Positions 3,588 to 50,941 of a stretch of DNA of 64,000 bases are shown piece by piece; position 1 is the stretch's first letter; each line of letters starts with the position of its first letter. The DNA is from an uncultured Acidobacteriota bacterium (GTDB lineage Bacteria; Acidobacteriota; Thermoanaerobaculia; Multivoradales; SZUA-115). Position numbers and translations under genes: made by a program. Location: contig CAWDVR010000002.1 in assembly GCA_963805975.1 (NCBI GenBank), positions 1,125,955-1,189,954 of the forward strand, in the 5' to 3' direction. Below the pieces are notes generated by a model. The model was given only the letters and a program-made list of their open reading frames with translations. It was not told where the DNA came from and did no database searches.

Positions 3588-4004
3588 GTGCGAGCTTTGG
3601 GCATCGACTTCGGTGAGCGGCGGATCGGTCTCGCGATCTCGGACCCGCGAGGTTCCATGGCGCTGCCGCTCGTCACTTTCGAGCGCCGCGACGACCGCCG
3701 CGCGGCGCGCCGCATCGCCGCCATCGCGCGCCAGGAGGAAGTCGAGTGCCTGGTGCTCGGCGAGCCGCGCAACCTCGATGGCTCGCGCGGCGAGGCGGCG
3801 GAGCGCGTGGCCCGTTTCGGCCAGCGCCTGCGGGAGGCCACGGGCCTGCCCCTCGAGTGGGTGGACGAGGCGCTGACCTCGGTCGAGGCCCGCGCGCGGC
3901 TGCGCGAGGCGGGTGCGCGGCCGGCCGAGATCGCCGAGCACATCGACGCCGTGGCCGCGCAGATCCTCCTCCAACAGGCCCTGGACCGCAGGTCTCCCTC
4001 ATGA
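3588..4004 (+). CDS. ruvX: Holliday-junction resolvase-like protein RuvX/YqgF
   Basis: 138 aa with a GTG start. The N-terminus LGIDFGERRIGLAISD is typical of YqgF. The gene pairs with mltG as in many bacteria. Confidence 0.8.
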   Translation: MRALGIDFGERRIGLAISDPRGSMALPLVTFERRDDRRAARRIAAIARQEEVECLVLGEPRNLDGSRGEAAERVARFGQRLREATGLPLEWVDEALTSVEARARLREAGARPAEIAEHIDAVAAQILLQQALDRRSPS

Positions 4005-4052
4005 CAGGGCGCAGGTCTCCCTCATGACAGGGCGCAGGTCTCCCGCATGACC
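3988..4052. repeat. 23-bp tandem repeat (gcaggtctccctcatgacagggc), ~2.8 copies, spanning the ruvX stop and the mltG start
   Basis: Direct reading shows copies at 3988-4010 and 4011-4033, and a partial variant at 4034-4052 (ccctc changed to cccgc). Each copy carries an ATGA stop/start overlap motif. Confidence 0.8.
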
Positions 4053-5374: not shown

Positions 5375-7354
5375 ATGAACGCTCGTGATGTGACCGGCCG
5401 GGAAGAGTTTGGCAGCTACACCTTGCTCAAGAAGCTCGCCGAGGACCCCCTGGGCGAGACCTTCCGCGCCGGGAGGATCGGCGCCAAGGGCATGGAGCAG
5501 GTGGTGCTCCTGCGTGTTTTCAACGGCCCGAGCGTCGAGCCCGACGCCCTCTGGCGCCAGCTCGCGAACCGTGGCGCCGTGCAGGAAGCGCTCAAGAGCC
5601 CGAACGTCGGCAGCGGCGTCGAGCTGGGACGGGTGCGCAACGTGCCGTTCGTCGCCTACGACTACATCTCCGGCAAGAGCCTGGCCTCGCTCCTGGCCCA
5701 GATCAGCCACGAGCGCTCGCCGCTGCCCACCGACCACGCCCTGCTGATCGCCGAGCGCATCGCGCTCGGGCTCTCGGTGGGCTACGAGACCAAGGTGCAG
5801 GAGCAGCGCATCCTGCACGGCTTCCTGGTGCCCCCGCTGCTGATGCTCGGCAACGAGGGCGACATGCGGGTGCTCGGCTTCGAGGCCGCGCCCGGCCTGC
5901 GCGAGGTGGTGAAGACCGGCTCCCTCGCGCCCGAGGTCGCGCGCTTCCTCGCTCCCGAAACCCTGTCCGGGGCCCCCCTCCACCGCGCCGACGACGTCTA
6001 CTCGCTGGGCTCGATCCTCTTCGAGCTGCTGACCGGCCAGCCGCTGCCGAGCGGCGCGGGCGCGCGCGGTGTCGACGGCGCGCGGCTCGCCGGCGAGGGC
6101 ACGCCCATCCCCGCCGAGATCGCCAACCTGATCAAGCGCAGCCTCGCCCCGCAGGCCGAGCGCATCCCCGACGTGGTGACCTGGCACCGCCTGCTGTCGA
6201 AGCTGATGATCGACAGCCAGTACAGCGCCACCACCTTCAATCTCGCCTTCTTCATGCACAACCTCTTCCGCGACGAGATCGACCGCGAGAGCAAGGAGAT
6301 CGAGAAGGAGAAGACGCTGGCGCTGCCGCGGCGCGAAGTGCTGGCCGCCGCCGCGGCGGCCGGCCACGGCCAGTCGGCGACGGTGGAGATGAGGCCGGGC
6401 GCGCCGAGCCCGGCGTTCGGCGCCCACGACGCCGACGCGCGCGACTCCGCGGCCAAGGGCGGCAACATGGCGCTCTGGGGAGGGCTCGCGGCGCTGGTGC
6501 TGATCGGCGGCGGCGCGGGCATCTACTTCGGCCTGATCCGGGACTCGAAGCCTGCCGCCCAGACCGAAACGTCGCCCGTACAGGACACCGCGGCGCCGGT
6601 CTCGACCGAGGAGACGGCGCCGGCGACAGGGGAGCCCACAGCCGACGCCACGGTGACGGCCCAGGCCCCCGACGCACAGTCGGACCTCAACGCCCAGCTC
6701 GAGAAGCTCCTCGCCGAGCGCATGGCGGCGATGGAGAAATCCGTCCGCGCCCAGTACGACGAGAAGATCCGCGGCCTGCAGCAGTCGATCGATCAGTCGC
6801 AGCGGGCCTCGGCGGAACGGCCCGCCGGCGCCACCGAGGCCGGCAAACCACCGGCAGGGGCCGTCGAGCCGGCGCCGGCGACTTCCGGTGCCGCGAACCC
6901 GGACGGCGCGGCGAGCGCCCCGGCGGGAGGGCCTGCGGTGGCCGACACCACGAGCGCCGACACCGTTCCCGAGCCGGCGCCCGCCGCCGCGGACTCGGTA
7001 CCCGCCCCCTCGCCGACCACCGCCGCCGAGCCGCAGCGCCGCCAGGTGCGGGTGGGCGATCTCGTCGAGGCCGGCCCCGGGGTGATCGCGCCCCGCATCA
7101 AGAACATGCCCAACCCGGTCTACCCGCCCGCCGCCAGGCGGCTCAACAAATCCTCGGTGGTGCCGGTCCGGGTGCGCGCGCTGGTGGACGAAAACGGCCG
7201 TGTGACCCGGGCCGAGCTGGGCGGGCCGGACCCCGGATTCGGATTCGGGGACGCGGCGCTCGCCGCCGCGCGCTCCGCCCGCTTCGAACCCGCCACCCTG
7301 CAAGGGGTGCGGGTCAAGATGTGGAAGCCGTTCACGGTGGAGTTCAAACCGTAG
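5375..7354 (+). CDS. pseudokinase (degenerate Ser/Thr kinase-like domain)-TM-Pro/Ala-rich linker-TonB C-terminal domain fusion protein
   Basis: 659 aa with a GGAGGG RBS. The N-terminal domain keeps the kinase-like APE and DVYSLGSILFELLTG motifs, but the VAIK Lys, the HRD Asp (ILHGFL) and DFG (LGF) are lost. A TM helix follows (ALWGGLAALVLIGGGAGIYFGLI), then a coiled-coil and P/A-rich region. The C-terminus has a TonB_C signature (NPVYPPAARRLNKSSVVPVRVRALVDENGRVTRAEL...RFEPATLQGVRV). Confidence 0.65.
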   Translation: MNARDVTGREEFGSYTLLKKLAEDPLGETFRAGRIGAKGMEQVVLLRVFNGPSVEPDALWRQLANRGAVQEALKSPNVGSGVELGRVRNVPFVAYDYISGKSLASLLAQISHERSPLPTDHALLIAERIALGLSVGYETKVQEQRILHGFLVPPLLMLGNEGDMRVLGFEAAPGLREVVKTGSLAPEVARFLAPETLSGAPLHRADDVYSLGSILFELLTGQPLPSGAGARGVDGARLAGEGTPIPAEIANLIKRSLAPQAERIPDVVTWHRLLSKLMIDSQYSATTFNLAFFMHNLFRDEIDRESKEIEKEKTLALPRREVLAAAAAAGHGQSATVEMRPGAPSPAFGAHDADARDSAAKGGNMALWGGLAALVLIGGGAGIYFGLIRDSKPAAQTETSPVQDTAAPVSTEETAPATGEPTADATVTAQAPDAQSDLNAQLEKLLAERMAAMEKSVRAQYDEKIRGLQQSIDQSQRASAERPAGATEAGKPPAGAVEPAPATSGAANPDGAASAPAGGPAVADTTSADTVPEPAPAAADSVPAPSPTTAAEPQRRQVRVGDLVEAGPGVIAPRIKNMPNPVYPPAARRLNKSSVVPVRVRALVDENGRVTRAELGGPDPGFGFGDAALAAARSARFEPATLQGVRVKMWKPFTVEFKP

Positions 7355-13115: not shown

Positions 13116-14645
13116 TCAGGGATCGATCTTTTCTCGCCACGCGGCCGGCAGCCTGCTGATGGGCAGGATGTAGCCGAGCTGGGAGTAGACCTCGGCGTCC
13201 TCCACCGTGGCGGACGGTACGCCGATCAGGCGATAAGCGCCGTCGAGCGCCGCGCCGCCCGAGTTGCCGGAGCCGATCTCGGCATCGGTCTTCAGCACCA
13301 CGCCGGCCTCGGTGGTGTCGAAGCCGCTGATCACGCCTCGGGTCAGGGTCACCGACACGCGGCTGCCGAGCCCCCCGGCGCCGGGGAACCCCAGCACGGT
13401 CACCGGATCACCGATCGCCACCGCCTCGGAGCTGCCGCGTTCGAGGAACGGGAACCGGTAGCCGGCCGGCAGCTCCTGGCCGTAGAGACCGCTCTCGATC
13501 TTCACCAGCGCGAGGTCCAGCGCGCGGTCGGCCAGCACCACGCTGCCACGGAACAGCTCCGCCGGCGGCATCCTGGCGTCGAGGCACAGGCTCACCACCA
13601 GCTCTCCACTACCCGCCGGGTTGCCGGTGTCGTCCACCACCACGTGGAAATTGGTCAGCACCCAGCCGTCCGGAGAGACCAGCGTACCGCTGCCGCTGCC
13701 GCTCTGGGTCAGGATCTCGACCGTCGACAGGAGCGCGCGATCGATGCCCGCGGCCGGCTGGCGCAGCGTGGGGATCGAGAGCAGCTCTGCCGCCGGCTGT
13801 GCCGCGAAGCTGGCGTGGGCGGTGAAGCGGGCGAGGTCGAGCTGGAAGGGGTCGAAGACGCTCACGTACCAGGTGCCGGGGGCGAGCGGCGGGTCGCTCG
13901 CCTCGTCGATCAGCAGCGTCTCCCGGCCGAGCAGGCTGTCCGCCACATGGTCGGCATCCTCCGGGTTCAGCACCGCCTGGCCGCGCCGGGCCACCATGTC
14001 GAGGTCGCTCGTCACCTGGTCGAGATCGATGCGCAGCGCCGCGGCGCCCCGCGGCACGTCCACCGTGAAGGTGCGGAACCAGCCGCTGTCGGCGGAAGTC
14101 TCCATCGCCCGCGGCTCGCCGGGCACCAGGCGGCCGTCCACGCGGGAGCGGATCACGGAGGCGGTGATGGTGAATGGGATCTCGTTCACCCGTCGCTTGC
14201 GGATCCGCGGCTCCGCCTCCACCGTGTAGGCGACGTCCACGTAGTAGGTGCCGGGCACGAGCGGCGGCTCGCCGGAGCGCAGGATGGTGAGCGTGTCGTT
14301 GTAGAGCCGGGTCGAGGCCTCGTACTCGGCGTCCTCGTCGTAGTTGGCGAGCGGGCGGTCCCGGCGCGCGAAGAGGTCGAGGTCGACCGGCGCGTCCTCG
14401 ATCTCGAGGGTCAGCATCATGGCGTCGCCGGGCACCTCGACGATGAAGCTCTGCCAGAGCTGATCTTCCCAGTCGATGACCGCCGCCTTCGGCCGCCCCA
14501 GCTCCAACCGCGTGGCGCTTTCTTCGGCGTCCTCGGCCACGGGCTCCTGAGCCAAGAGCGGCGTGCCAAGGCCCGCGAGCGCCGTGAGGATCCCCAGCCA
14601 GGCCAACAGCGGACCGCCCGCGCAACGCCAAGGGCTCGATTTCAC
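13116..14645 (-). CDS. secreted trypsin-like (S1) serine protease with two N-terminal PPC-type domains
   Basis: Start set at the GTG at 14643-14645 ([32 protein letters not shown] signal peptide), because the longer track ORF (to 14930) reads through the tRNA gene. The catalytic triad context is present (LTNFHVV ... GNSGGA). Confidence 0.7.
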
Positions 14646-14664: not shown

Positions 14665-14694
14665 CAAAAAAGCGAGCCGCAAATGCGACTCGCT
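14665..14694 (-). terminator. intrinsic terminator following tRNA-fMet (minus strand)
   Basis: On the minus strand the stem is AGCGAG-C-CGC(AAAT)GCG-A-CTCGCT (plus-strand coordinates 14671-14694). It is followed by a T6 run (plus-strand A6 at 14665-14670), and sits 14 nt downstream of the tRNA 3' end. Confidence 0.5.
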
Positions 14695-14703
14695 TTGACT
14701 TGA

Positions 14704-14784
<81 letters not shown>

Positions 14785-14910
14785 TCACAAGGAGCGTCGC
14801 CGCTCCTCGAAGAACGGGAAGTATCCCAAAACTTGCCGGCGCTGTCAAAGTCCGGGCAGGGCCTGCGCGCCGCGGGCTCCGTCGAGGTGGCTGTACAATT
14901 CGCCGACAGG

Positions 14911-15543
14911 ATGCCTCCCCTGCCGCCCAACCAGAAGCGCGAGGAAGAAGCACAAAAGATCCTGGCGGCGCTGCGGGAGGGCTCGCTCAGCTTGGACCTC
15001 GCTTTCGATCGCCTCTTTCGCTCGCACTACGCCGCCGTCCGTTGGCTCTTCCGCCAGTGGCTTACCAGCCCGGAGGATCGTGAGGAGCTAACCCAGGAGA
15101 CTTTTCTCCGCATCTATCTGAGCATCGAGGCGTTTCGCGGAGATTGCAGCTTCAGCACGTACCTCTTCAAGCTCGCCAAGAACGTGTTCCTCGGGCACCG
15201 GCGGAGCAAGCTCGCCGAGAAACGCAGCGGCATCGAGGTTTCTCTCACGGGGAGCCCGGAGACCGGGGAGGAGCCGAGCACGGAGCCGCTCCCTCCCGTG
15301 CCGCCGGAGCAAGAGGATGCTGTGCTCCGAACGGAGCAGGAGAAAAAGTTGCTCGAGGTAGTGGGACAGATGCCGGATCAAAGACGCAAGTGCCTGATTT
15401 TGAAGTACTACCAGGATCGCAGCGTGCAGGAGATCGCGGCGCTGCTCCACCTCGCCGAGGGCACGGTGAAGGCGCACTTGCACCAGGGGCGAGAGCAGCT
15501 CCGAACACTTCTGGGGGCGGACGCGCTGACGGAACGGACCTAG
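14911..15543 (+). CDS. ECF (group 4) RNA polymerase sigma factor
   Basis: 210 aa from the ATG at 14911; the track start at TTG 14833 is less likely. Region 2 reads DREELTQETFLRIYLSIEAFRG. Region 4 reads RSVQEIAALLHLAEGTVKAHLHQGREQLR. Confidence 0.85.
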   Translation: MPPLPPNQKREEEAQKILAALREGSLSLDLAFDRLFRSHYAAVRWLFRQWLTSPEDREELTQETFLRIYLSIEAFRGDCSFSTYLFKLAKNVFLGHRRSKLAEKRSGIEVSLTGSPETGEEPSTEPLPPVPPEQEDAVLRTEQEKKLLEVVGQMPDQRRKCLILKYYQDRSVQEIAALLHLAEGTVKAHLHQGREQLRTLLGADALTERT

Positions 15544-15581
15544 ACCTTCGGGGGCGGGGGTTTCAGGAAAGCAGGTGGAAG

Positions 15582-16367
15582 ATGGCTCAGACACTGAAGA
15601 TCAAGACCCTGCTCGAGGGCCTGGCTCGCGAGCAGGGCGAGCCGGCGGCCGGCCATCCCAGCGACGAGGAGCTCGTCGAGTACGAGGCCGGCGAGCTGGA
15701 CCCGGAGGACTACCGGCGCGTTCAGGACCACTTGGTGGCCTGCGAGCCGTGCGCCCGTCTGGTGCTCGAGATCTCGCTCCTCGAGCCCAAAGCGCTCGAC
15801 GGCGAAGACCCGGTTTCCGAGCACGAGCTGGCGCAGTCGCTGCGCAGGATGCGAACCCGGCTCCCGGCGCAGCCGCCGCTCCGGGTGGTGGCGCAGCCGG
15901 TCAGGCCGGGCGGGACCCCCAACTGGTACAGAGCCGTGGCGGCAGGCCTTTCGGTGGCCGTGCTCGGGCTCGCGGGCTGGGTGGGGCTGCTGCTCTCCCA
16001 CCGCGGCGGCCCGGAGATCAACGCCTACGTCTGGAACCTGAACGACACCGGCACGCGGGGAGGCTTCGAAGAGGCCGATCTCGTGGAGGTGCCGGCCGGC
16101 AGCAACGCCGTGACGCTGTTGCTCTACGCCTCGAAGCTCGGCGAGCAGGGCACGCCGGAGTACGACGGCTTTCGCGTCGAGATCGCCGGCGCCGGCCGTA
16201 CCTGGAGCCGCGACGGCCTGCTGGTGGTGGGTTCGGGCTCGTTCTCCCTCACTCTGCCGAAGGACGATTTCCCAGCCGGCGCCTACAACGTGAGGATCCT
16301 GGGTACGCGCCAGGGCCAGCAGGAGGCGGCCCTGGCGACCTACACGATCGATCTGCGCTACGCCTGA
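15582..16367 (+). CDS. membrane-anchored anti-sigma factor with a ZAS-type zinc-binding motif
   Basis: 261 aa with an AGGTGG RBS. HLVACEPC (HxxxCxxC) sits about 45 aa from the N-terminus. A single TM helix (VAAGLSVAVLGLAGWVGLLL) precedes a ~110-aa beta-rich extracytoplasmic domain. It lies 38 bp after the sigma-factor gene. Confidence 0.7.
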   Translation: MAQTLKIKTLLEGLAREQGEPAAGHPSDEELVEYEAGELDPEDYRRVQDHLVACEPCARLVLEISLLEPKALDGEDPVSEHELAQSLRRMRTRLPAQPPLRVVAQPVRPGGTPNWYRAVAAGLSVAVLGLAGWVGLLLSHRGGPEINAYVWNLNDTGTRGGFEEADLVEVPAGSNAVTLLLYASKLGEQGTPEYDGFRVEIAGAGRTWSRDGLLVVGSGSFSLTLPKDDFPAGAYNVRILGTRQGQQEAALATYTIDLRYA

Positions 16368-16384
16368 GGTAGGCTCCGGCCGAG

Positions 16385-19300
16385 ATGCCTCGGTCCTCCA
16401 GCCGAGCGGCGATCGTCTTCCTGATTACGGCTCTGCTCGCCTTTCTCGCCGGCTACGAGAGAGCTCGACTTCCACCCGCCACTCGCCAAGGCCTGCTGAC
16501 CGCAACGCCGGCACCGGAACCAAGGCCCGCGGCGCGCTCCCTCCCGCTCGTCGCCGGCACCGAGATCCCGGCCATCCTGGCCGGCGGCGAGGCCCACGAG
16601 TACAGCCTTTCACTGCGAGAAGGCCAGTTCGTGGACCTCGAGGTCGAGCAGCAGGGCATCGACGTGATCCTCGAGCTCTACCAGCCCGGCGGCGACCTCG
16701 AGACCCTCGTGGACAGCCCGAACGATGCCTCGGGACCGGAGCCCCTGCTGCTGCTGGGCGAGGCGGCGGGCGAGTACCGTCTTTCGATTGCAGCAGGAAA
16801 CCCGGCAGATCCATCCGGCCGATACATCCTACGTCTCCTCGCCGTGCACGAGGCCGGGGCCGACGACCGCACCCGGGTCACCGCGGAGCGCATGTTCGCC
16901 AAGGGCGAAGGGCTGCGGCGCGCAGGAACCGCCGAATCCCTGACCGAGGCGATCGATTGGGACCGGCAGGCTCTCCTTCGGTACCGCAGCCTGGAGAGTC
17001 GTTCGCGAGAGGCGGATGTTCTCGTTGCGTTGGGAAGGGTCCACTCATTTCGCGATGACTGGCAGCAGGCACTCTCGGCATTCGAGCAGGCCCTTCCCAT
17101 ACTGCGAGAGGCCGGGCGAGGCGTGGACGAGGCGGCAACGCTGAACAACATTGGCCTGGTCCTCAACAAAACAGAGCAATCCCAACGGGCGCTCGACCTT
17201 TTCAGGCAGGCAGAAGCTCTATACCGGCGGTTTGGACACCCCCACCAAGCCCGCGCCCTGAGCAACATCGGCTGGGCTCACGAGAAGCTCGGCGACCTCG
17301 AGGACGCTATTCAGGCTTACCGCGATGCCTATACACAATTTCTCAGGTTGAGCGACTCGCCTGGCGCTGGAATCTGCATGCTCAACATCGGGGATCTTTA
17401 CTCCAGACAGGGTCAGACTGAGAGTGCGATCGATGCTTATGAAGAAGCTCGCGCTCGGCTCGAGAAGTCTCCGGACCGGCGATCACTTGCGCTGACCCAG
17501 ACGAGGCTCGGGTACGCACGCTACCGGTCCGGCCAGGCCGAACAGGGCCGAGAGCTCCTGGAGACCGCCCTGGAGATGCAGCGACGCCTGGGTGCACGAA
17601 GAGACGAAGCGATCTCTCACAACTCTCTGGCTCTCCTCCTGAGTGAGGCAGCCGAGACCGAGCTCGCCAAGCTCCACTATCACGAGGCTGCAGCCATCGG
17701 CACGGCGCTGGGCGACGAAGCAGAGCGCGCTGTGACTCTCGCCAACCTGGGGCATCTCGAGCTCGAGAGCGGCTCCGACGAAGCGGCCGAGGGCACATTC
17801 CGAGAGGCGCTGGCGACTTTTGCCCGGGTCGATTCACCCCTGGGCGAGGCCACCGCTCTCTTTGGGCTGGGGACGCTTCTCGCTCAGCAAGGCAAGCTGA
17901 GCGAGGCCGCATCGGTGCTCGAGCGGTGTACTCGCAGAGTCGAGGACGTGCGCAACGCGACGGCGAGCTCGGATCTGCGAAGGTCATTCCTGGCGCTCCA
18001 GCAGCCAACCTACGGGTTGTACATCGAAACCCTCATGAGGCTCCACGCGGCAGATGTGGACGCCGGGTTTGACCTGATGGCCTTCGAGGTCGCCCAACGT
18101 GTACGAGCGCGTGGCCTGCTCGACGACCTGCTGGCGTCCCCTGCGGCGCTGCGGAGAGACGGCCCCCACCCTCTGGTCGAGGAAGAAGCAGCCCTCAGCC
18201 AAGCAATCAACAGAACAGCAGAGGAACGTCAGCCCCTGCTCGCCATCCCTCGATCTCGACAGAAGGTCGACGACCTCGGCAAAGTACTGAGAGGGCAGCT
18301 CGCGGCTGCTGATCATCTGGAAGCAAGGATGCGGAGAAGCAGCACGGCCTTCCGCGAAACCATCTCGGCACCGGCTCAGACACTCGAAACGATCCAGCAA
18401 CAGCTTCTCGGCGCGGAAACCATCCTCTTGGAGTACGCTCTCGGCAACAACGAGAGCTACCTGTGGGCAGTGACTGACAGCTCGTTGTCGAGCTTCCGGC
18501 TGCCGCCGCGCCGAGAGCTCGAGGCGCAGGCAGCGGCACTGTACCGCGCGCTCTCGCTCGGGCCGCAGCCACTCGCTTCGGGTCAGACCGAGGCCTTGCT
18601 GAAAAAACTTTCAGAGACTCTCCTGGGGCCGGTGGCAGAGCTCGTTGGTGATCGGCGGATTCTGGTAATTCCCGATGGGGACCTTGCACTGCTCCCGTTT
18701 GCCGCCCTCCCCAGACCGAGCACAGCCGCCAAGGCTCATCAGAAAGCGGACTCGGAGCCGATCGCCACCGGGCACGAGGTGACGATACTGCCGTCCGCGT
18801 CGTCCCTCGCCTTCTTGCGGCGCAGATCTCGGGCGCGCTCCTCCGCCCCGGGGCTCCTGGCAGCGATCGGAGATGCGGTTTCCAACCCCGGAGACCTGCG
18901 GTTTCCCAGGCGACCTCCCGTCCCCCCCGGCTCACAGCTCATCCAGTTCCCGCGGTTGCCTTATGCACGAGCAGAGATGGAGCGAATTCTATCTCTCGCG
19001 GGTGAGGAGCCGAAGCTCGCGGCGTCAGGATTCGAAGCCAGCAGAAGCACGCTCATGACCGAGGTCCTGTCCAGATATCGAATCGTTCACTTCGCCACTC
19101 ACGGTGTCTTTGACCCCGAGTTCCCCGAGCTGTCGGCGATCGTACTGTCGACCTTCGATGCCAGCGGATCTCCCCGAGATGGTCTGGTTCGAGCCCATGA
19201 GCTGCGACGGATGAATTTCAACGCAGAGCTAGTCGTGGTCTCCGCCTGCGAGACCGCACGCGGGAAGACGGTGCGCGGAGAAGGAGTTGTGGGTCTGGCT

Positions 19301-19573
19301 CGCAGCCTGCTCTCCGCCGGGGCCCAACAAGCAATGGTCAGCCTCTGGGAGGTCGACGACCAGGCGACGGCAAACTTGATGGAAGAGTTCTACCGCGGCT
19401 TGCTGGTCGAGCGCCGTAGCGCTGCTGCAGCGCTGCTGGAAGCGCAGGCAGCCGTCGCCCGCCAGGAGCGGTGGCACTCTCCGTACTTCTGGGCCGGATT
19501 CCTATTGATTGGCGACGGGAGTGGTCTCGGCGCTAAACCGCACATTCCCCCGTCGCATCTGAGACGGAATTAG
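16385..19573 (+). CDS. TPR-repeat / CHAT-domain (caspase-fold, clan CD) protein with an N-terminal membrane anchor
   Basis: 1062 aa. The N-terminus IVFLITALLAFLAGY is hydrophobic, followed by a PPC-like domain. Multiple TPR-like repeats carry ALxNIG(L/W) cores. The C-terminal CHAT domain has a His/Cys dyad (IVHFATHGVFD ... LVVVSACETARG). Confidence 0.85.
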   Translation: MPRSSSRAAIVFLITALLAFLAGYERARLPPATRQGLLTATPAPEPRPAARSLPLVAGTEIPAILAGGEAHEYSLSLREGQFVDLEVEQQGIDVILELYQPGGDLETLVDSPNDASGPEPLLLLGEAAGEYRLSIAAGNPADPSGRYILRLLAVHEAGADDRTRVTAERMFAKGEGLRRAGTAESLTEAIDWDRQALLRYRSLESRSREADVLVALGRVHSFRDDWQQALSAFEQALPILREAGRGVDEAATLNNIGLVLNKTEQSQRALDLFRQAEALYRRFGHPHQARALSNIGWAHEKLGDLEDAIQAYRDAYTQFLRLSDSPGAGICMLNIGDLYSRQGQTESAIDAYEEARARLEKSPDRRSLALTQTRLGYARYRSGQAEQGRELLETALEMQRRLGARRDEAISHNSLALLLSEAAETELAKLHYHEAAAIGTALGDEAERAVTLANLGHLELESGSDEAAEGTFREALATFARVDSPLGEATALFGLGTLLAQQGKLSEAASVLERCTRRVEDVRNATASSDLRRSFLALQQPTYGLYIETLMRLHAADVDAGFDLMAFEVAQRVRARGLLDDLLASPAALRRDGPHPLVEEEAALSQAINRTAEERQPLLAIPRSRQKVDDLGKVLRGQLAAADHLEARMRRSSTAFRETISAPAQTLETIQQQLLGAETILLEYALGNNESYLWAVTDSSLSSFRLPPRRELEAQAAALYRALSLGPQPLASGQTEALLKKLSETLLGPVAELVGDRRILVIPDGDLALLPFAALPRPSTAAKAHQKADSEPIATGHEVTILPSASSLAFLRRRSRARSSAPGLLAAIGDAVSNPGDLRFPRRPPVPPGSQLIQFPRLPYARAEMERILSLAGEEPKLAASGFEASRSTLMTEVLSRYRIVHFATHGVFDPEFPELSAIVLSTFDASGSPRDGLVRAHELRRMNFNAELVVVSACETARGKTVRGEGVVGLARSLLSAGAQQAMVSLWEVDDQATANLMEEFYRGLLVERRSAAAALLEAQAAVARQERWHSPYFWAGFLLIGDGSGLGAKPHIPPSHLRRN

Positions 19574-19608
19574 CACCATCTATTCCTTCTGCTCGCAAAG
19601 GAGAGGCG

Positions 19609-19860
19609 ATGAGAACCAGTTCGCATCCGAAAGAAACTGATCAGGGGACGGCGGAGAAATCTACCAGCGTGACCAGGGTGGACCCGGGCTTTCCTATCGA
19701 GCAGGGAGCTGGGGGCCAGGGGTCGGGTGGCGGCACTCCGGCCAAGCCACCCAATCAATCGGACGGCGAACCCGGTTCGGTCAGCCCCAAGAAGCGCGTC
19801 CGAAAGATCAGGCGAGGAGCGGTCCCGAAGAAGGCCAGCCCGACCCGAAGATCGGCATAA
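19609..19860 (+). CDS. small low-complexity basic protein (hypothetical)
   Basis: 83 aa. An AAGGAGAG RBS lies 5 nt before the ATG. The sequence is Gly/Ser-rich with a basic tail (KKRVRKIRRGAVPKKASPTRRSA). It sits between two caspase-fold genes and no family is recognised. Confidence 0.35.
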   Translation: MRTSSHPKETDQGTAEKSTSVTRVDPGFPIEQGAGGQGSGGGTPAKPPNQSDGEPGSVSPKKRVRKIRRGAVPKKASPTRRSA

Positions 19861-20086
19861 CGTCGGACACCGCTTCCAAGGCTCGCGGCGCGGTCCGGCG
19901 GTCGTTTACCCGGCGCCCGCGCCGCCATTGCCATATCCTATGCCGCCAAGGCCATGACAGATCCTTGCTCGGTGTTCAACGGCATTCATGCCACGACGGG
20001 CCGCACCTTGTATCCGGCGCATCCGGTGAGGAGCCTGATTCACCTCGCAGAGCGGGAGAGGGGCTCGCCGATGCAGACCGGCCCTC

Positions 20087-21439
20087 TTGCCCCTCCTCGG
20101 GCTCGCGCGTCCTCGTGCGCAGGGGCTCCCCGCGGCCCTGCTCTCCGACTGCGACTTCAGGGACCCGGCCGAGGCCGGCTGGGGGGTGATCTTTTCCGCC
20201 CAGGCCGATCCCAAGGTTCGAGCGGCCCTCGCTCCATTGCTCGACCATCGCAAGGAACAGGTGACGCGTTCCAACGAGCGCCGATACCACGAGTTCTCGG
20301 GTGAGCTGGGCTACCAGAAGGGCGATACCAAAGCCAGGTTCCTCCATCGCCAGTGCGTGGGGCCCGGCGAGTTCGACGCCCTGCGCGTGCCCTACTACCT
20401 GCTCCTGGTGGGCGGACCGGAAGAGATCTCTTTCGGTTTTCAGGACAAGCTCGATCCCCGGTACGCCGTCGGCCGGCTCTGTTTCGATCGGGTGGAGGAC
20501 TACGCGCGCTACGCGGCCCACGTGGTCGCCACCGAGCAGGCGGCGAAGCTGCGCCCGTTACGCGCCACGGTCTTCGGGGTCGCCAACGCGGACGACCGCG
20601 CCATGGAGCTGACGTGCGAGTACCTGGCCAAGAGGGTCGCCACCAATCTCGCAGCCAAGGCCCAGGGCTTTGCAGTCGAGAAGGTGCTCGGGGTGGCCGC
20701 CACCAAGGACCGCCTGCGGCGCCTGCTGGGCGGCGATCAGACTCCCGACCTGCTCTTCACCACCTGCCACGGAATGGGTTTCGACGCCGGTGATCCGCGC
20801 CAGGAGATCGAGCAGGGCGGCCTCGTTTGCGCGGACTGGCCCGGTCCCTTGGCCTGGCAGAAGCCGCTCGACGCCAGGCACTACTTCACGGCGCGAGACG
20901 TGGGCGACGAGGCCCGCCTGGGTGGCTTGATCACCTTCCACTTCGCCTGCCACAGCGCCGGCACCCCGGATCACGACGCCTACGGCGAGCGCACGAACCA
21001 GAATCCCCGCCGCCTGGCGACCCGGCCCATGGTCGCCGGCTTGTGCAAGCGTCTTCTCGCTCACCCCGGCGGCGGCGCGCTGGCGGTGGTCGGCCACGTC
21101 GAGCGAACCTGGGGATACTCCTTCCTGTGGCAGGGCATCGGGCCGACTACGCAGGCCTTCGAGCGGACTCTCGAGAGCCTGCTCGCCGGCAACCCGGTCG
21201 GTTTCGCCATGGAGCCCTTCGCGGCCCGTGCTCACGACCTCGGCGAGGATCTGCGCGAGGAGGGAGACCCGGAGCGGGCGGCCATGCTGTGGACCGCGCT
21301 CCAGGACGCCCACAACTACATCATCCTGGGCGATCCGGCGGTGCGCCTGCCGGCACCGAAGCCGCCTCGGCTCCGGCCGCCCCCGGGGCCGTCGTCGCCG
21401 CTCTCGCGCCGGAAGCTCCAGTTCGGAGAAGCCGGTTGA
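20087..21439 (+). CDS. second caspase-fold (metacaspase/C14-like, clan CD) peptidase-like protein
   Basis: 450 aa. The putative dyad is LLFTTCHGMGFD (His) and LITFHFACHSAGTP (Cys), spaced ~63 aa apart; the metacaspase motif is D[AS]CHSG. The start is uncertain, since the track uses a TTG at 20087. Confidence 0.55.
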   Translation: MPLLGLARPRAQGLPAALLSDCDFRDPAEAGWGVIFSAQADPKVRAALAPLLDHRKEQVTRSNERRYHEFSGELGYQKGDTKARFLHRQCVGPGEFDALRVPYYLLLVGGPEEISFGFQDKLDPRYAVGRLCFDRVEDYARYAAHVVATEQAAKLRPLRATVFGVANADDRAMELTCEYLAKRVATNLAAKAQGFAVEKVLGVAATKDRLRRLLGGDQTPDLLFTTCHGMGFDAGDPRQEIEQGGLVCADWPGPLAWQKPLDARHYFTARDVGDEARLGGLITFHFACHSAGTPDHDAYGERTNQNPRRLATRPMVAGLCKRLLAHPGGGALAVVGHVERTWGYSFLWQGIGPTTQAFERTLESLLAGNPVGFAMEPFAARAHDLGEDLREEGDPERAAMLWTALQDAHNYIILGDPAVRLPAPKPPRLRPPPGPSSPLSRRKLQFGEAG

Positions 21440-39974: not shown

Positions 39975-42900
39975 CTACCGGAACGAGAACCTGGCCCCCA
40001 GCCGCAGGATCCTCGGCGGGAGGACTTCGACCACCCAGTTGCCGCCGAGAGCGCGGATGTCGGTGACCTCACCGGTTCTCACGTCGGTCTGCAGGGCGGA
40101 GACTGCGCTCGCGCGCTGGAGAACGTAGGACTCGTTGGTCAGGTTGAAGGCCTCGAGGCTCAGGGTGAGCCGCGAGTCCTTGATCTTGATCTCCTTGTCG
40201 ATACGGGCCGAGAGCAGGTGGACGTCCGAGAGGCGGTACTCGTCCAGGTCGTTGCCGAGCAGCACCTGGCGCCGGGCGAGCGGGTCGCGGCGCGGGTTGA
40301 CCGGGACGTTGTAGGGGACGGGAAAGCCCTCGCGGCCGAAGAGGTTGGCCGCGACGTTGAAGCCCCAGTGCTTTTCGGGCGCGATCTGGTAGAGAGCCGA
40401 CAGGTCGTAGGACCAGCCGCTGTTGACGAAGACATTGCCGCGGACTCCCTGGGTGCTCGCACTGCCGATCACCACCGGGCTGCCGTCGATGGTGTCGCCG
40501 GGAAGGAGCAGGGTCGGGTCTTCCCGCTCGCTGTCCGGCACGCTCCATTGCCAGTCGCTCCAGGTCGCGTGGCCGCGCAGCAGCCACTGGTTCGAGAGGC
40601 GCTTGTGGGCCGTCAAGCTGACGCCCAGGTAGTCTTGCTCGCGGTCCCCGTTCTCACGGTAGACGCCGCCGAAGGTGGTGAGCTCCGGCCTCAGGCGATA
40701 GACCGGCACCGAGAACGCCGTGCCGTCCGGCAGGCTGCCCTCGACGATCCAGCCGACCTCGTAGTCGTCCCGCCGGTGGGGGCGGCCGATCGAGCCGGGA
40801 GGCGCGTCGGGATCGACGATCAGCCGTTCCTGGTCCTCGATGTCGGTGTAGCGGCGAGCGGTGAGCGAGAGACCGAGCACCAGCTCCGGCCGCAGGGCAT
40901 GCTCGACGGCGAAGGTCAGCTCCTGGGTGGTGGGGGCCTTGATGTCGGGATCGACGGCGTTGACCGTGCCGCGCGTCGGGAAGTCCGGATCGACGCCGAT
41001 AAAGCTGAAGAACGGCCCCACCTCGTCGCGGGTCAGGTCGAGATCGGCGTTGTAGTCGTACCAGTAGAAGTAACCGTACTGCGCGTTGCCCGGGCTGGTG
41101 GTGTAGATGCCGTTGTCGTCGAGCTGGTCGGCGAAGTGCGCGTAGCTCGCCCGCAGCAGGGTCTTGTCCTCCTTGCCCAGCGCGTAGGTGAGGCCGAGGC
41201 GCGGAGTGACCGACTCCCATTCGAATCCGGCGTCGCTCTCCGGAAAGCTGCCACCGACGAGCACGCCGCCGGTGATCGGCGCCGGGTCGAGAGTGATCGC
41301 CTTGTTCTTACCGCGTTGGAGGTCGTAGCGCAGGCCGACGTTGGCGGTCAGGTCCCCGAAGGCGAGCGTGTCCTGGAGGTAGACGTGGGTGGCCTCCACA
41401 CGGTCGCGGTAGTTCGAGCCGCTGGTGATGAAGCCAAAATAGACGTCCTCTGCGATCTCCTGGTTGGCGAAGCCCACTGCCTGGAGGCCGGGCCAGGCGG
41501 AGGTCGATTCGATGTCGGTGCGGCGGTAGCCGGTGCCGAAGCGCAGCTCGTGGTTGACGTTGCCGGTCGGGAAGAAATAGTTGCCCTCGAGCTTGATCTG
41601 CGACTGCGGGCGCTCGGTCTGGTAGGCCAGGAAGCTGTTGCGCCAGCCGCCGTCCGGGCCGATCACCACGCTCGGCGCGTTCGGGTCACCGATGCCGCCG
41701 CCCTGGGGCAACAGGTCGAACTGGCTCTCCACTTGCGAGACGTTCGCGGTCAGGTAGAAGTCCTTGCCGAAGAGCTGGCTCTGCTCCAGCTTGTAGATCG
41801 GGGTGGGAGAGCGGCGGTCGACGCTCGTTTCCGGCGGCCGGAAAGGGCCGGCGTCCTGGCCGAGGCGGATCAGGTCGCTGAAATGGTAGTAGAACGAGCC
41901 GGAGCTGTTGGGCGAGAACTGTGTGCTGAGCTTGACCGAGCGGTTCTCGATATCCGAGTTGTCGGGGTAGTCGGAGATGGTCAGGAGATCGATCTCCTGC
42001 TGGCCCCAGGAGGCCCAGCCCCAGAGGTGCTCCTTGATCAGCGGGCCGCCGCCTTCGATGCCGTAGTCCTCGGTGGTGACGATCCGGTTGCCCTGGCGGA
42101 ACGTCTCCTGCTGGGTGTCCCTGTTCCAGGGGCCGGGTCCGCCCAGCTCGCCGGGGGTCAGCGAGAGGTCGGCCTGCCAGTCGTCGTCGGCATGGAAGAA
42201 GCGGGTCGAGAAGCGCCACTGGTTGGTGGCCCGCTTGGTGACCAGGTTGACGGTGGCGCCGGCGGTGGCGAGCGATGCGTCCGCGCCGCCGACCGAGACC
42301 TCGATGGCTTCGAAGGTGTCGAAGTCGTAGTAGGTGGAGGAGGCGCCGGAACCGACCATGTCGGTGATGGCGACGCCGTCCACCTGCCAGACGGTGTTCC
42401 TGGGGTCGGTGCCGGGGGAGACCACCTTCGCCTGCCGGGCGCCCTCGCTGCCGGCCACGTTGATGCGGTCGAGGATCACGCCGGGGGTCTGCTGCAGGAT
42501 CGCCCAGGGGTCGCGGTTGATGGGCAGCTTCTCGAGTTCCTCACGCGGCACGTTGAGGCCCTTGGTGACCATGCGCGTGTCGAGGATCGGGGACTCGGCC
42601 GTGACCACCACGCTGTCCTCCACCTGCTGCGCGGAGGCGACCTCGAACACGTTCAGCAGCTTGATCTCGAGCTCCAGGTTGCGGCTCACCTGCACGTTCA
42701 GGTTGCGGTGCTCGAGCGAGGTGAAGTTCTCGCGCTCGGCCAGCACCTGGTAGAGGCCCGGCGCCAGGCCCAGGAATCGGAAGCCGCCGTCCTCGCCGGT
42801 GGTCTTGACCTGCGGCGGGCCCTGGCTCCCGAGCGTCACGGTGACGCCCGCCATGGGCTTGCCCTGCGAGTCGACCACCCGGCCGAGGAGGTTGCCGGTC

Positions 42901-43016
42901 TGCTGCTGGGCTTCGGTGGTCGGTGCTGCCAGGGCAGCGGCAAGACCGAGCCAGGCGAGGACGAGCGAGGGCTTGAGGGTGCGCACCAGGGCCTCCTTCG
43001 TACGAGCGGGTGTCAT
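39975..43016 (-). CDS. TonB-dependent outer-membrane receptor with an N-terminal carboxypeptidase-regulatory-like domain
   Basis: 1013 aa with a signal peptide. The CarboxypepD_reg-like start is GNLLGRVVDSQGKPMAGVTVTL...GGFRFLGLAPGLY. The plug/barrel region has TonB-box-like features (DSVVVTA). The C-terminus is aromatic (RFSFR). Confidence 0.8.
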   Translation of the reverse strand: MTPARTKEALVRTLKPSLVLAWLGLAAALAAPTTEAQQQTGNLLGRVVDSQGKPMAGVTVTLGSQGPPQVKTTGEDGGFRFLGLAPGLYQVLAERENFTSLEHRNLNVQVSRNLELEIKLLNVFEVASAQQVEDSVVVTAESPILDTRMVTKGLNVPREELEKLPINRDPWAILQQTPGVILDRINVAGSEGARQAKVVSPGTDPRNTVWQVDGVAITDMVGSGASSTYYDFDTFEAIEVSVGGADASLATAGATVNLVTKRATNQWRFSTRFFHADDDWQADLSLTPGELGGPGPWNRDTQQETFRQGNRIVTTEDYGIEGGGPLIKEHLWGWASWGQQEIDLLTISDYPDNSDIENRSVKLSTQFSPNSSGSFYYHFSDLIRLGQDAGPFRPPETSVDRRSPTPIYKLEQSQLFGKDFYLTANVSQVESQFDLLPQGGGIGDPNAPSVVIGPDGGWRNSFLAYQTERPQSQIKLEGNYFFPTGNVNHELRFGTGYRRTDIESTSAWPGLQAVGFANQEIAEDVYFGFITSGSNYRDRVEATHVYLQDTLAFGDLTANVGLRYDLQRGKNKAITLDPAPITGGVLVGGSFPESDAGFEWESVTPRLGLTYALGKEDKTLLRASYAHFADQLDDNGIYTTSPGNAQYGYFYWYDYNADLDLTRDEVGPFFSFIGVDPDFPTRGTVNAVDPDIKAPTTQELTFAVEHALRPELVLGLSLTARRYTDIEDQERLIVDPDAPPGSIGRPHRRDDYEVGWIVEGSLPDGTAFSVPVYRLRPELTTFGGVYRENGDREQDYLGVSLTAHKRLSNQWLLRGHATWSDWQWSVPDSEREDPTLLLPGDTIDGSPVVIGSASTQGVRGNVFVNSGWSYDLSALYQIAPEKHWGFNVAANLFGREGFPVPYNVPVNPRRDPLARRQVLLGNDLDEYRLSDVHLLSARIDKEIKIKDSRLTLSLEAFNLTNESYVLQRASAVSALQTDVRTGEVTDIRALGGNWVVEVLPPRILRLGARFSFR

Positions 43017-43069
43017 TGGACTAACTCTTCCCTAAGATGCGTCATCCCCCCCCAAAGCGTGTCTAACCG

Positions 43070-43576
43070 CTATCTCGCAACTCGCCGGCGGCGCAGGATG
43101 GGAAGGAAGAAGAGGTAGAGGCCGGTGAGCCACAGCAGCAGCAGGACCACGCCGGCGGGCAGGAAGATCCCCAGCTTCACCCAGCGGTGGAAAAAAGAGC
43201 CGTCGTGGATCGCCTCGATCAGGTCCGAGCGCCGGTAGGCCACCTGCAGGACCTCGCCGGTCGCGGAATCGATCTGGATCTCCCAGCCGGTCTTCGCCCA
43301 CACCTTGAGCATGCCCTTCGAGGGCCGCACGTCCACGCGCTGGATGTCCTCCCAGGTGCGGACCTCTCCTTCGGGGACCCGGCTCGCGATCTCGACGATC
43401 TCCGCCAGCGACAGCGCCGGCGCGCCGCCAGAGCCCGCGCGCTCCGGGGGCTGCACCCACGGGAGCTGCTTTTTCAACTGCAGCAGGATGCCGCTCGCGA
43501 TCATCACCAGCAGGGGCACGGCCACGAAAATCGACAGCCAGTGATGGACTTTCCGATTGAGAAGCTGGAACTTCAT
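43070..43576 (-). CDS. PepSY-associated TM helix (PiuB-like) membrane protein
   Basis: 168 aa with an AGGAGG RBS. HHWLSIFVAVPLLVMIASGILL is the PepSY-TM signature, and there is a second TM helix at the C-terminus. It lies 54 bp upstream of the TonB-receptor gene on the same strand. Confidence 0.7.
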   Translation of the reverse strand: MKFQLLNRKVHHWLSIFVAVPLLVMIASGILLQLKKQLPWVQPPERAGSGGAPALSLAEIVEIASRVPEGEVRTWEDIQRVDVRPSKGMLKVWAKTGWEIQIDSATGEVLQVAYRRSDLIEAIHDGSFFHRWVKLGIFLPAGVVLLLLWLTGLYLFFLPILRRRRVAR

Positions 43577-43658
43577 CGCGGCTCGGCCCTCCTACAGGAA
43601 TAGGAGGATATCCCAGCCTCGTCGCTGGCCCCTCGAGCCGCCACGATAGACTTCCTCG

Positions 43659-47165: not shown

Positions 47166-47176
47166 GCGCACGCAGC

Positions 47177-49243: not shown

Positions 49244-49286
49244 CCCCTCACCCTAACCCTCTCCCCGCTCTCGCGGGGCGAGGGAT
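49244..49286. repeat. REP/MITE-like element, half copy (one arm)
   Basis: cccctcaccctaaccctctccccgc-tctc-gcggggcgaggg, lying after the surA-like stop. Confidence 0.6.
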
Positions 49287-49390
49287 CGGCATTGTAGGGG
49301 CGACCGGCGGTCGCCCCCCTTGGCTCGAGGCTCCAGATCTCCCAGAAAACCACCCCCGGTGGAGCACCGCGGCCCCTTGGTGGCCCACGG

Positions 49391-49414
49391 TGGAAAAAGA
49401 TGGACAAGAGTGGA
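49391..49414 (+). promoter_or_regulatory. three TGGA direct repeats at exact 10-bp spacing upstream of mraZ (MraZ-box-like operator)
   Basis: tggaaaaaga / tggacaagag / tggagtcagt begin at 49391, 49401 and 49411. They lie ~80 bp upstream of the mraZ ATG. Confidence 0.35.
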
Positions 49415-49492
49415 GTCAGTTGTTAGACTGTCACTCAAACGCCCGTGCGTTTTCTCACGCATCGCGTCGTATCGCCTGGGGGGTAGGGGGAC

Positions 49493-49930
49493 ATGTTCCG
49501 GGGCAGCGCGCCAGCGAAGATCGACGAGAAAGGTCGGCTGAAGATCCCGACCGACTTCCGGCCGGCGCTCGAGCAGCACGGGCCGGACCTCTTCGTCACC
49601 TCCATCCGGGGCGACTCGGCTCTCCTCTACCCGCTCGCCGTGTGGGAGGAGATCGAGGATCGGCTGCGCAAGATGCCTTCCACCGACCGCGCGCGGGCGC
49701 GGTACCTCGAGCGCGCCAACTACTTCGGCCAGCAGCTCACTATCGACAGCCAGGGCCGCATCGTCATCCCGCAGATCCTGCGCGAGTCGGCGGGCATGAA
49801 CGGCGAGGTCGTGGTGCACGCGGACCTCGATCACCTGGTGGTGTGGAACCGCGAGCGCATCGCCAAGCGCCTCGCGGACGAACCGTTCAGCGAAGACGAC
49901 TTCCGGGCTCTCTCCGAGCATGGGATCTAA
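49493..49930 (+). CDS. mraZ: transcriptional regulator MraZ
   Basis: 145 aa. It has two SpoVT/AbrB-like halves, with KIDEKGRLKIP and IDSQGRIVIP motifs. It is the first gene of the dcw cluster. Confidence 0.9.
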   Translation: MFRGSAPAKIDEKGRLKIPTDFRPALEQHGPDLFVTSIRGDSALLYPLAVWEEIEDRLRKMPSTDRARARYLERANYFGQQLTIDSQGRIVIPQILRESAGMNGEVVVHADLDHLVVWNRERIAKRLADEPFSEDDFRALSEHGI

Positions 49931-49936
49931 CGGCCC

Positions 49937-50923: not shown

Positions 50924-50941
50924 GACCCTTCGAGACCCGCC

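Follow-up and report, generated by a model that had tools for sequence, protein, structure and literature searches.

How is a sigma factor of the extracytoplasmic function (ECF) type controlled when the genes that follow it encode an anti-sigma factor and a caspase-like protease? The question arises from five plus-strand genes in a 64-kb stretch of DNA (the window) from an uncultured acidobacterium (contig CAWDVR010000002.1), which encode an ECF sigma factor, an anti-sigma factor, a tetratricopeptide repeat (TPR)-CHAT protease, an 83-amino-acid (aa) open reading frame (ORF) and a Peptidase_C25-like protein (Table 1). Pfam matches and ORF coordinates bear out an earlier description of these genes and their domains (the original prediction), which had read them as a CRISPR-independent, protease-gated sigma switch resembling the signalling arm of Craspase. 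The locus belongs to a four-gene module that recurs elsewhere: sigma factor, zinc-binding anti-sigma (ZAS) factor, TPR-CHAT protein with predicted export, and small peptide. Our own reading, plausible but tentative, is that this module works as a split switch of the DdvS/DdvA kind, in which the TPR-CHAT protein gates the ECF sigma factor.

Table 1. Features of the locus and their positions in the 64-kb window (AF2, AlphaFold2; L011, a close relative).
Feature	Position	Strand	Evidence or remark
ECF (group IV) sigma factor, 210 aa	14911–15543	+	Pfam Sigma70_r2, r4_2, Sigma70_ECF
Single-pass ZAS (HHCC) anti-sigma factor, 261 aa	15582–16367	+	zf-HC2 6.5e-6, AF2 model
Exported membrane-anchored TPR-CHAT protease (predicted), 1,062 aa	16385–19573	+	Pfam CHAT 2.4e-67, TPR_12 3.6e-45
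Variable cassette: TPR array, CHAT domain, peptide gene, spacer	16950–19915	+	Window versus L011 DNA identity
Small Pro/Gly-rich peptide gene, 83 aa	19609–19860	+	Ribosome-binding site AAAGGAGAGG, conserved motif
Conserved non-coding block TTGCCATATCCTATGCCGCCAAGGCC	19928–19953	+	26 nt, directly 5′ of the C25-like start codon
Peptidase_C25-like (clan CD) gene, cytoplasmic, frameshifted	19954–21439	+	Pfam Peptidase_C25 7e-8
Initiator tRNA-fMet gene	14708–14784	−	ARAGORN; Rfam tRNA 66.9 bits; neighbour, outside the module

Architecture of the sigma factor, anti-sigma factor and TPR-CHAT protein

The sigma factor carries Sigma70_r2 (4e-13, aa 35–100) and r4_2 (1e-15, aa 146–197) regions and matches NCBIfam TIGR02937 (9e-30). 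Its best relative among solved structures is SigW (6e-18), with Escherichia coli RpoE also matched (1or7, 2.3e-10), and it is closest overall to SigW, AlgU and RpoE-type proteins; SigW/RsiW and RpoE/RseA are the classical sigma/anti-sigma pairs controlled by proteolysis. The anti-sigma gene lies directly 3′ of it after a gap of 38 bp, and its product has the HxxxCxxC motif noted earlier (H50-x3-C54-x2-C57) together with a fourth zinc ligand, H25, all invariant in 11 homologues. The AF2 model (md358e49dad89) consists of the helices of the anti-sigma domain, a transmembrane (TM) helix at aa 114–141 and an immunoglobulin (Ig)-like beta-sandwich at aa 148–260; by prediction the anti-sigma domain is cytoplasmic and the sandwich periplasmic. 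Both membrane proteins had been given N-terminal anchors in the original prediction; this holds for the TPR-CHAT protein (signal anchor, aa 6–28), whereas the TM helix of the anti-sigma factor is central. Searched as a profile against solved structures, the anti-sigma factor matched ChrR (1.4e-3) and RslA but not Csx30, with the N-terminal domain of DdvA (DdvA-Nt) at a non-significant E of 0.28, and to judge by its sequence it is of the classical ZAS class-I type. A juxtamembrane P-[QE]-x-N motif kept in 13 of 14 lineages marks a candidate cleavage site. Foldseek searches with the model returned generic Ig/FN3 sandwiches only; a likeness to chagasin-type cysteine-protease inhibitors (E ~8e-4, TMq ~0.2) was weak and was set aside as uninformative.

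The TPR-CHAT gene follows after 17 bp and is separated from the 83-aa ORF by 35 bp, so that the spacing of 35–38 bp reported previously for these genes is correct for the first and third gaps but not for the one between the anti-sigma and TPR-CHAT genes. The Pfam CHAT match spans the full profile, and the N-terminus of the protein reads MPRSSSRAAIVFLITALLAFLAG. In the AF2 model (mean predicted local distance difference test (pLDDT) score 87, predicted template modelling (pTM) score 0.82) the signal anchor is followed by a disordered linker, a beta-sandwich (aa 60–156), a TPR superhelix (aa 159 to ~660) and the CHAT domain (aa 667–1045). The catalytic dyad, which had been described as intact, consists of H906 (in HFATHG, codon 19100–19102) and C955 (in VSACETARG, codon 19247–19249), both invariant in an alignment of 28 homologues. 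Most full-length homologues begin with a signal peptide and several with a lipobox cysteine and, given these signals and the signal anchors across homologues, the family is predicted to be exported and extracytoplasmic. A TM helix followed by a beta-sandwich, together with the export signals, would place the TPR-CHAT protein in the same compartment as the C-terminal domain of the anti-sigma factor. Foldseek ranked separase, Csx29 and DdvA about equally at the top (E ~1e-15 to 1e-16), the DdvA structure 8rw5 at 2e-15 and 8rot also being matched. In sequence searches against solved structures, the full-length protein was swamped by TPR proteins; the CHAT domain, as a single sequence or as a 10-sequence profile, gave no significant match, its sole hit being a sub-threshold separase aligned at the catalytic Cys, and the profile found no DdvA chain at E ≤ 1.

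Recurrence of the module, its exchanged cassette and its cargo

We scanned metagenomes for relatives with the CHAT-domain alignment, and the neighbourhoods of these relatives (given here as L numbers) come wholly from metagenome-assembled genomes (MAGs) and metagenomes. Syntenic close relatives carry the sigma, anti-sigma, TPR-CHAT and peptide genes, one or two C25-like genes and the same housekeeping flanks. The order sigma, anti-sigma, TPR-CHAT (type A) recurs in distant loci—L012, L002 (a Holophagales MAG), L014 (two divergent copies), L016, L022, L100 and L050—in which the CHAT proteins are only 35–40% identical and the flanks unrelated; named relatives include Holophagales, Thermoanaerobaculia and Pyrinomonadaceae MAGs. 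The anti-sigma and TPR-CHAT genes are separate in all relatives examined. Many relatives that had seemed to lack a sigma factor have a second order (type B; L017, L024, L038, L070, L084, L091 and others, for example, L070:7136-8843), in which the TPR-CHAT gene is followed by a divergent ECF-like sigma gene (~200 aa, with weak, sub-threshold Sigma70_r2 and r4_2 matches) and then by a gene for an anti-sigma-like membrane protein. This protein (320–350 aa) is cysteine-less, and has a coiled-coil and a C-terminal beta-sandwich homologous to that of the window anti-sigma factor. Both flanks could be read for 38 TPR-CHAT genes, and 21 of these stand beside such a sigma/anti-sigma pair (9 in type A and 12 in type B). 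A crude neighbour-joining tree built on the CHAT domains of 74 loci puts 15 of the 17 sigma-linked ones into basal clades whose evaluable members all have a linked sigma gene; the remaining two (L041 and L043) fall among unlinked loci.

The anti-sigma family is large: clustered at 50% identity, it has 259 representatives at E ≤ 1e-30, most of which come from soil and sediment metagenomes, and 1,930 at E ≤ 1e-10. When two arbitrarily chosen distant homologues (E 4e-41 and 3e-34) were looked up, both stood in a row of sigma, anti-sigma, TPR-CHAT, small ORF and cargo genes. The two gene orders and these two prospective look-ups argue against chance adjacency, which we reject; the conservation of the neighbourhood, on which the original prediction had staked its case, thus extends to distant lineages.

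The 83-aa ORF had been described as basic and of low complexity. It is present, but is not mere filler: it has a strong ribosome-binding site and a conserved core motif, DPxF(P)IExxGG..G/D.GG....PP(P), followed in the window by a basic tail. Tblastn found no relatives because the sequence is of low complexity; the family was recovered by reading the frames 3′ of TPR-CHAT genes and with a regular expression for the motif. ATG-initiated ORFs of 50–90 aa with the motif lie directly 3′ of TPR-CHAT in L011, L013, L007, L002, L016 and L014 (twice), and weaker versions with a C-terminal W/TG..PPP occur in L022, L100, L050, L037 and L102. Run on six-frame translations of all the loci compared (1.46 million residues), the expression gave seven matches, each of them this ORF. 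No export signal is present in the peptide, nor did it match any model of Pfam, NCBIfam or PADLOC at E ≤ 0.01, and this extends to Trypco (Pepco), CATRA and CATASP models so far as the Pfam and NCBIfam libraries include them. Its conservation indicates that the small ORF is a real component of the module.

Comparison of the window with L011 revealed an exchanged segment. Over the sigma gene, the anti-sigma gene and ~570 nt at the start of the CHAT gene, the DNA of the two is ~95% identical; identity drops to 40–70% inside the cassette and is back at 91–99% from just 5′ of the C25-like start. Correspondingly, the sigma, anti-sigma and C25-like proteins are 95, 91 and 96% identical, and the TPR-CHAT protein is 92–94% identical over aa 1 to ~190 but 28–56% in most 50-aa blocks of the rest, with 66–82% in the catalytic core (aa ~900–1000). 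The sensor/protease body and the peptide have been swapped here as one unit, with the TM/beta-sandwich N-terminus left beside the sigma/anti-sigma pair; such a swap within ~95% identical backgrounds is the pattern expected of a sensor.

The fifth gene was originally taken for a second caspase-fold protein, which its conserved dyad supports, but its family is Peptidase_C25 (profile positions 109–374) rather than C14. The dyad residues lie in H228–G229 (TCHGMG; His codon 20768–20770) and A287–C288 (HFACHSAG; Cys codon 20948–20950); across 26 homologues from several phyla, H228, G229 and C288 do not vary, and conservation of A287 reaches at least 90%. The longest intact ORF (20087–21439) has 450 aa and a TTG start, whereas relatives have 480–530 aa and begin MTDPxSVFNGI(D/H)xTTG. 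This conserved N-terminus (MTDPCSVFNGIHATTG) is encoded in another frame from ATG 19954, behind an AAGG ribosome-binding site, and alignment with the 96%-identical relative in L011 places a 1-nt insertion near 20085 (20080–20090) that parts the N-terminal 44 aa from the catalytic body. This frameshift accounts for the 450-aa length, the TTG start and the gap of 226 bp assigned earlier to this position; the true spacer is 93 bp. The gene is either a pseudogene or affected by an assembly error. The block in front of it, which contains its ribosome-binding site, aligns in five copies (the window, L011, L013 and both L007 paralogues) and is non-coding, given an in-frame TAG in one L007 paralogue (L007b); sequence further upstream is not conserved. 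The protein has no signal peptide that we could read from the sequence.

The C25-like family is widespread, with more than 4,500 hits at ~50% identity in Chloroflexota, Cyanobacteria, Planctomycetota and others. A member in Nostoc sp. HK-01 (AP018318.1; L018:5348-13539) lies between two genes, one for a 438-aa protein whose GHSFG motif is lipase-like and the other for a 1,630-aa CHAT-nSTAND1-WD40 protein, an arrangement that resembles published alpha/beta-hydrolase-caspase effector modules. Its position beside such CHAT-nSTAND1-WD40 giants places the C25-like gene among the caspase/STAND conflict systems of Kaur et al.

The cargo downstream of the module varies: C25-like proteins in the window clade, L014 and L002; CHAT-SIR2 and nSTAND1-WD40 proteins in L002, L014 and L016; a further CHAT protein in L103; TIG-repeat proteins in L012 and L102; and a second ECF sigma factor with a pyridine-nucleotide oxidoreductase and AAA/VWA proteins in L022. 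A 1,583-aa protein (P0041, L015:8001-12752) in which TPR-CHAT is fused to a Peptidase_C25 domain links sensor to cargo.

Several of these loci have further features. The P0041 gene has a PIN-domain gene 3′ and a divergent ECF sigma gene with two kinase-TPR genes upstream. In L014 (JGI Ga0467014_0000097), two sigma, anti-sigma, TPR-CHAT modules lie back to back; one runs on into peptide, C25, second peptide, CHAT-SIR2 and nSTAND1-WD40 genes, and the anti-sigma factor of the second lacks HxxxCxxC. A HicA/HicB toxin–antitoxin pair (L016:11193-11804) lies on the opposite strand between the small peptide and CHAT-SIR2 genes of L016.

A proposed protease-gated sigma switch and its rivals

In the switch that we tentatively favour, the variable TPR-CHAT body would sense an extracytoplasmic, probably proteinaceous, cue and then remove or unmask the periplasmic part of the anti-sigma factor, the likeliest route being a CHAT cut in the juxtamembrane segment. 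An RseP-type site-2 protease and cytoplasmic proteases would finish the release of the sigma factor, and the freed sigma factor would transcribe its own operon and the variable downstream cargo—here the cytoplasmic C25-like caspase-fold peptidase, elsewhere the CHAT-SIR2 and nSTAND1-WD40 conflict-type proteins. The scheme builds on the gene content, the intact dyads, the linkage in two gene orders, the export signals of the family and the cassette swapping that we observed. The CRISPR-independent part of the original prediction, a conserved linkage of an intact protease with a sigma factor, therefore stands and a protease-gated switch is a reasonable hypothesis; its Craspase framing does not stand.

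Contact between the TPR-CHAT protein and the anti-sigma factor, cleavage of the latter and dependence on RseP are steps that we infer, and so are the signal itself, the regulon and whatever part the peptide plays. A number of findings weigh against such a switch. The CHAT domain has no sequence-level relation to DdvA or Csx29, and 17 of the 38 evaluable TPR-CHAT genes have no linked sigma gene. No terminator or promoter structure that would define the operon was found. The ECF promoter expected upstream of 14911 did not emerge either: with a search pattern of a 4-mer, a 15–19-nt spacer and a 3-mer, no bipartite motif rose above shuffled controls upstream of 13 sigma genes, and none was found upstream of cargo; a TACAAT −10-like element lies 13 nt 5′ of the sigma ATG. 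On the cargo side, the C25-like gene is frameshifted in this genome, and the TIG-repeat proteins (L012, L102) and the second sigma factor with a redox enzyme (L022) are not of the conflict type. Because neither the peptide nor the C25-like protein has an export signal, they could not be direct periplasmic partners unless exported by another route. Finally, the anti-sigma factor keeps 91% identity across the replacement of the TPR-CHAT body, with no co-variation, and any specific contact would therefore have to run through the constant N-terminal TM/beta-sandwich or the conserved cleavage motif.

The last point also fits an arrangement in which the TPR-CHAT protein is an output rather than a regulator, a reading that we consider unlikely but the most serious of the alternatives. 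The sigma/anti-sigma pair would answer an envelope or redox cue through the periplasmic domain or the zinc site of the anti-sigma factor, and the TPR-CHAT protein and peptide would be co-transcribed members of the regulon (for example, a stress-induced periplasmic protease). ECF operons often carry their targets downstream, where context cannot tell regulators from targets (PMC7826278), the gaps of 17–38 bp fit co-transcription, ZAS domains can respond to redox state, as discussed for DdvA (PMC11506125), and the anti-sigma factor is, as noted, nearly unchanged while the body is swapped. Yet the linkage survives a change of gene order, as in type B, where TPR-CHAT lies upstream of the pair formed by a divergent sigma factor and its anti-sigma-like partner; the element common to both orders is the periplasmic beta-sandwich of the anti-sigma factor, more typical of signalling partners than of cargo; and the same two parts are fused in the single DdvA polypeptide.

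A role as a co-sensor that does not cleave the anti-sigma factor seems improbable to us. Here the TPR-CHAT protein would bind the periplasmic domain of the anti-sigma factor and shield or present it, as RseB does for RseA, while another protease makes the site-1 cut and the CHAT domain has some other substrate (such as an invader protein or the peptide). The dyad is invariant across the family, which argues from sequence that catalysis matters; in DdvA, however, the TPR-CHAT part sterically blocks RseP and dyad mutants are silent in unstimulated cells (PMC11506125). A candidate for the cut is the secreted PPC-Trypsin_2 serine protease encoded at 13116–14645 on the minus strand, divergent from the sigma operon here and in the syntenic L007 and L008, which may itself make the site-1 cut in this lineage and to that extent also weighs against a CHAT cut; the gene is not kept with the module outside close relatives, and the upstream genes differ in L012, L016, L022 and L103. 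As to the peptide as a substrate, it is swapped together with the TPR-CHAT body but lacks an export signal.

We regard as very improbable a Craspase-like cytoplasmic arm, in which a membrane-tethered but cytoplasmic TPR-CHAT protein cuts the cytoplasmic part of the anti-sigma factor and may activate the second caspase-fold protein in a cascade like that from SAVED-CHAT to PCaspase: the fold similarity to Csx29, the published CHAT-to-sigma (PMC10028731) and CHAT-to-caspase (bioRxiv 10.1101/2023.06.23.546230) cascades, the second clan-CD protein and small protein downstream and the TPR-CHAT-C25 fusion speak for it, but the signal peptides and lipoboxes of a family predicted to be exported contradict its topology, the ZAS anti-sigma factor is unrelated to Csx30, the TPR-CHAT protein has no sequence similarity to Csx29 and no activating ligand domain (SAVED or a Cas7-11 interface), and there is no array in the 64 kb and no Cas7-11 among the five proteins screened.

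The gated switch, if it operates as proposed, allows a further and more doubtful step: that the modules form a widespread immunity or conflict arm for envelope surveillance, in which a periplasmic TPR-CHAT receptor with a cassette-exchanged sensor and a cognate peptide detects a proteinaceous threat, cuts the anti-sigma factor in trans and licenses cytoplasmic death-type effectors (C25-like peptidases, CHAT-SIR2 NADases and STAND NTPases). This would be a bacterial pathway from receptor caspase through transcription factor to executioner caspase, with its parts on separate, individually testable polypeptides.

Neighbouring genes and relation to known systems

Upstream of the sigma gene lies the tRNA gene that had been reported there, a tRNA-Met(CAT) in which a C1xA72 mismatch and a GGG/CCC anticodon stem, read directly, are hallmarks of an initiator. 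It has its own near-consensus promoter (TTGACA-17-GATACT, 14848–14820, minus strand), the only one that stood out in a consensus promoter scan of the locus, and a terminator with a 12-bp stem (14696–14669, minus strand). The DNA upstream of the sigma gene is conserved because this divergent promoter sits there (14669–14848 region). The PPC-Trypsin_2 gene beyond it was considered as a part of the module and rejected, being syntenic only in close relatives (including L007 and L008). The absence of an array, asserted earlier, agrees with our search, in which TRF found no CRISPR-like array in the 64 kb; the accompanying claim on cas genes was examined with PADLOC on the five proteins rather than on every ORF of the window, and gave a generic TPR match only. 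Neither NCBIfam nor PADLOC assigned a specific family to any of the five.

Elsewhere in the window, a 23-nt unit (CGCAGGTCTCCCTCATGACAGGG) is repeated in 2.8 copies with 97% identity between genes at 3987–4051, and a gene at 5375–7354, shared with the syntenic L007, encodes a protein-kinase domain and a TonB C-terminal domain in one protein. A 1,379-aa ORF without a Pfam match (43032–47171, minus strand) adjoins a TonB-dependent receptor-like gene with CarboxypepD_reg, Plug and outer-membrane barrel domains (39975–43016, minus strand), and two further ORFs, of 665 aa (49253–51250) and 714 aa (51271–53415), also have no Pfam match.

Among known systems, the locus had been likened to Craspase. 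The two share a TPR-CHAT protease linked genetically to an ECF-like sigma factor and to a protein that holds it inactive, and the fold of the window protein resembles that of Csx29 no more than those of separase and DdvA. Type III-E systems have CASP-sigma as their sigma factor; Csx30 serves as its anti-sigma-like inhibitor and as the protease substrate, Csx31 being another protein altogether (PMC10028731), so that Csx31 had been miscast as the sigma factor. Csx29 works in the cytoplasm on Cas7-11, and target RNA activates it, whereas the window TPR-CHAT protein is predicted to be exported, and Csx30 is neither a ZAS nor a TM anti-sigma factor; the resemblance to Craspase is thus reduced to fold level.

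With RseA/DegS/RseP and RsiW/PrsW/RasP (RpoE/RseA and RsiW are also covered in PMC10028731) the module shares a single-pass anti-sigma factor with an extracytoplasmic domain and an expected dependence on a site-2 protease, but the candidate site-1 enzyme here is a clan-CD cysteine protease with a TPR sensor, not a PDZ serine protease or a PrsW-type metalloprotease. ECF54 of Actinobacteria is likewise associated with CHAT-domain proteins, in that CHAT, carboxypeptidase and subtilase genes lie nearby and proteolysis has been proposed as its control (PMC8999054); it differs in having no anti-sigma factor (PMC8999054, PMC7826278) and in its phylum. The caspase/STAND conflict systems (Kaur et al., PMC7159879, PMC8195603) share the CHAT-SIR2, nSTAND1-WD40 and C25-like caspase-fold cargo, and the presence of ECF sigma factors next to EACC2-caspase systems has been described. 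Small proteins beside caspase-like proteases are a recurring theme, as in SAVED-CHAT/PCaspase (bioRxiv 10.1101/2023.06.23.546230), Pepco, EACC1 and CATASP (bioRxiv 10.1101/2025.11.14.688446). The window proteins differ from these systems in giving no PADLOC match beyond generic TPR, and in that the sensor here would be periplasmic and act through transcription instead of direct effector cleavage.

The closest known relative of the module, as a functional analogue, is the fused DdvS/DdvA of Myxococcus and not the CRISPR Craspase. In M. xanthus, DdvA combines a ZAS anti-sigma domain, a TM helix and a periplasmic TPR-CHAT part on one chain; it is stable when intact, its bulky TPR-CHAT part sterically blocking RseP, and is degraded in an RseP-dependent manner once TPR-CHAT is removed (PMC11506125). 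Its authors suggested that CHAT serves as site-1 protease upstream of RseP, and the idea that a CHAT domain replaces a site-1 protease, raised for the window in the original prediction, was therefore already published for this fused anti-sigma factor (PMC11506125). That step could not be validated in DdvA because the signal is unknown and protease and substrate form one chain. DdvS/DdvA (PMC11506125, PMC6061681) and the window module share an ECF sigma factor, an N-terminal zinc class-I anti-sigma domain (although DdvA-Nt itself is a weak, non-significant profile match to the window N-terminus), one TM helix and a TPR-CHAT part with a conserved His–Cys dyad, periplasmic in DdvA and by prediction here, with fold matches to 8rot and 8rw5. 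Neither needs a CRISPR effector for sensing, conflict- or defence-type cargo occurs in several relatives, and the proposed logic is the same, with CHAT as the site-1 step before RseP.

The differences from DdvA lie in composition and reach. In the window the anti-sigma factor and the TPR-CHAT protein are separate genes, divided by a stop codon and the 17-bp gap; the anti-sigma factor has its own Ig-like periplasmic domain, and the TPR-CHAT protein its own signal anchor and N-terminal beta-sandwich, whereas DdvA has a helical scaffold. The zinc site is HHCC here and CHCC in DdvA, the CHAT domains have no detectable sequence homology, a conserved small peptide gene follows TPR-CHAT, and the cargo is C25-like, CHAT-SIR2 or STAND in place of the CBASS (cyclic-oligonucleotide-based antiphage signalling system) and CRISPR of DdvA. 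Fused DdvA-like proteins have been reported only in some Myxococcota and one Comamonas (PMC11506125); the split form, with its 259 close anti-sigma clusters, is common and spread much wider than this handful. We found no mention of the split ECF/anti-sigma/TPR-CHAT arrangement in the literature searched, and three of its features are so far unreported: the conserved peptide, the exchange of the sensor cassette and the second gene order. The module ties ECF signalling to caspase/STAND/SIR2 conflict systems and adds to them a conserved small peptide; should the cleavage model hold, it would show that regulated intramembrane proteolysis can be set off by clan-CD proteases in many phyla. With protease and putative substrate on separate proteins, trans-cleavage, binding and dyad mutants are directly testable, in contrast to the single chain of DdvA, and the naturally swapped cassette could reveal what is sensed.

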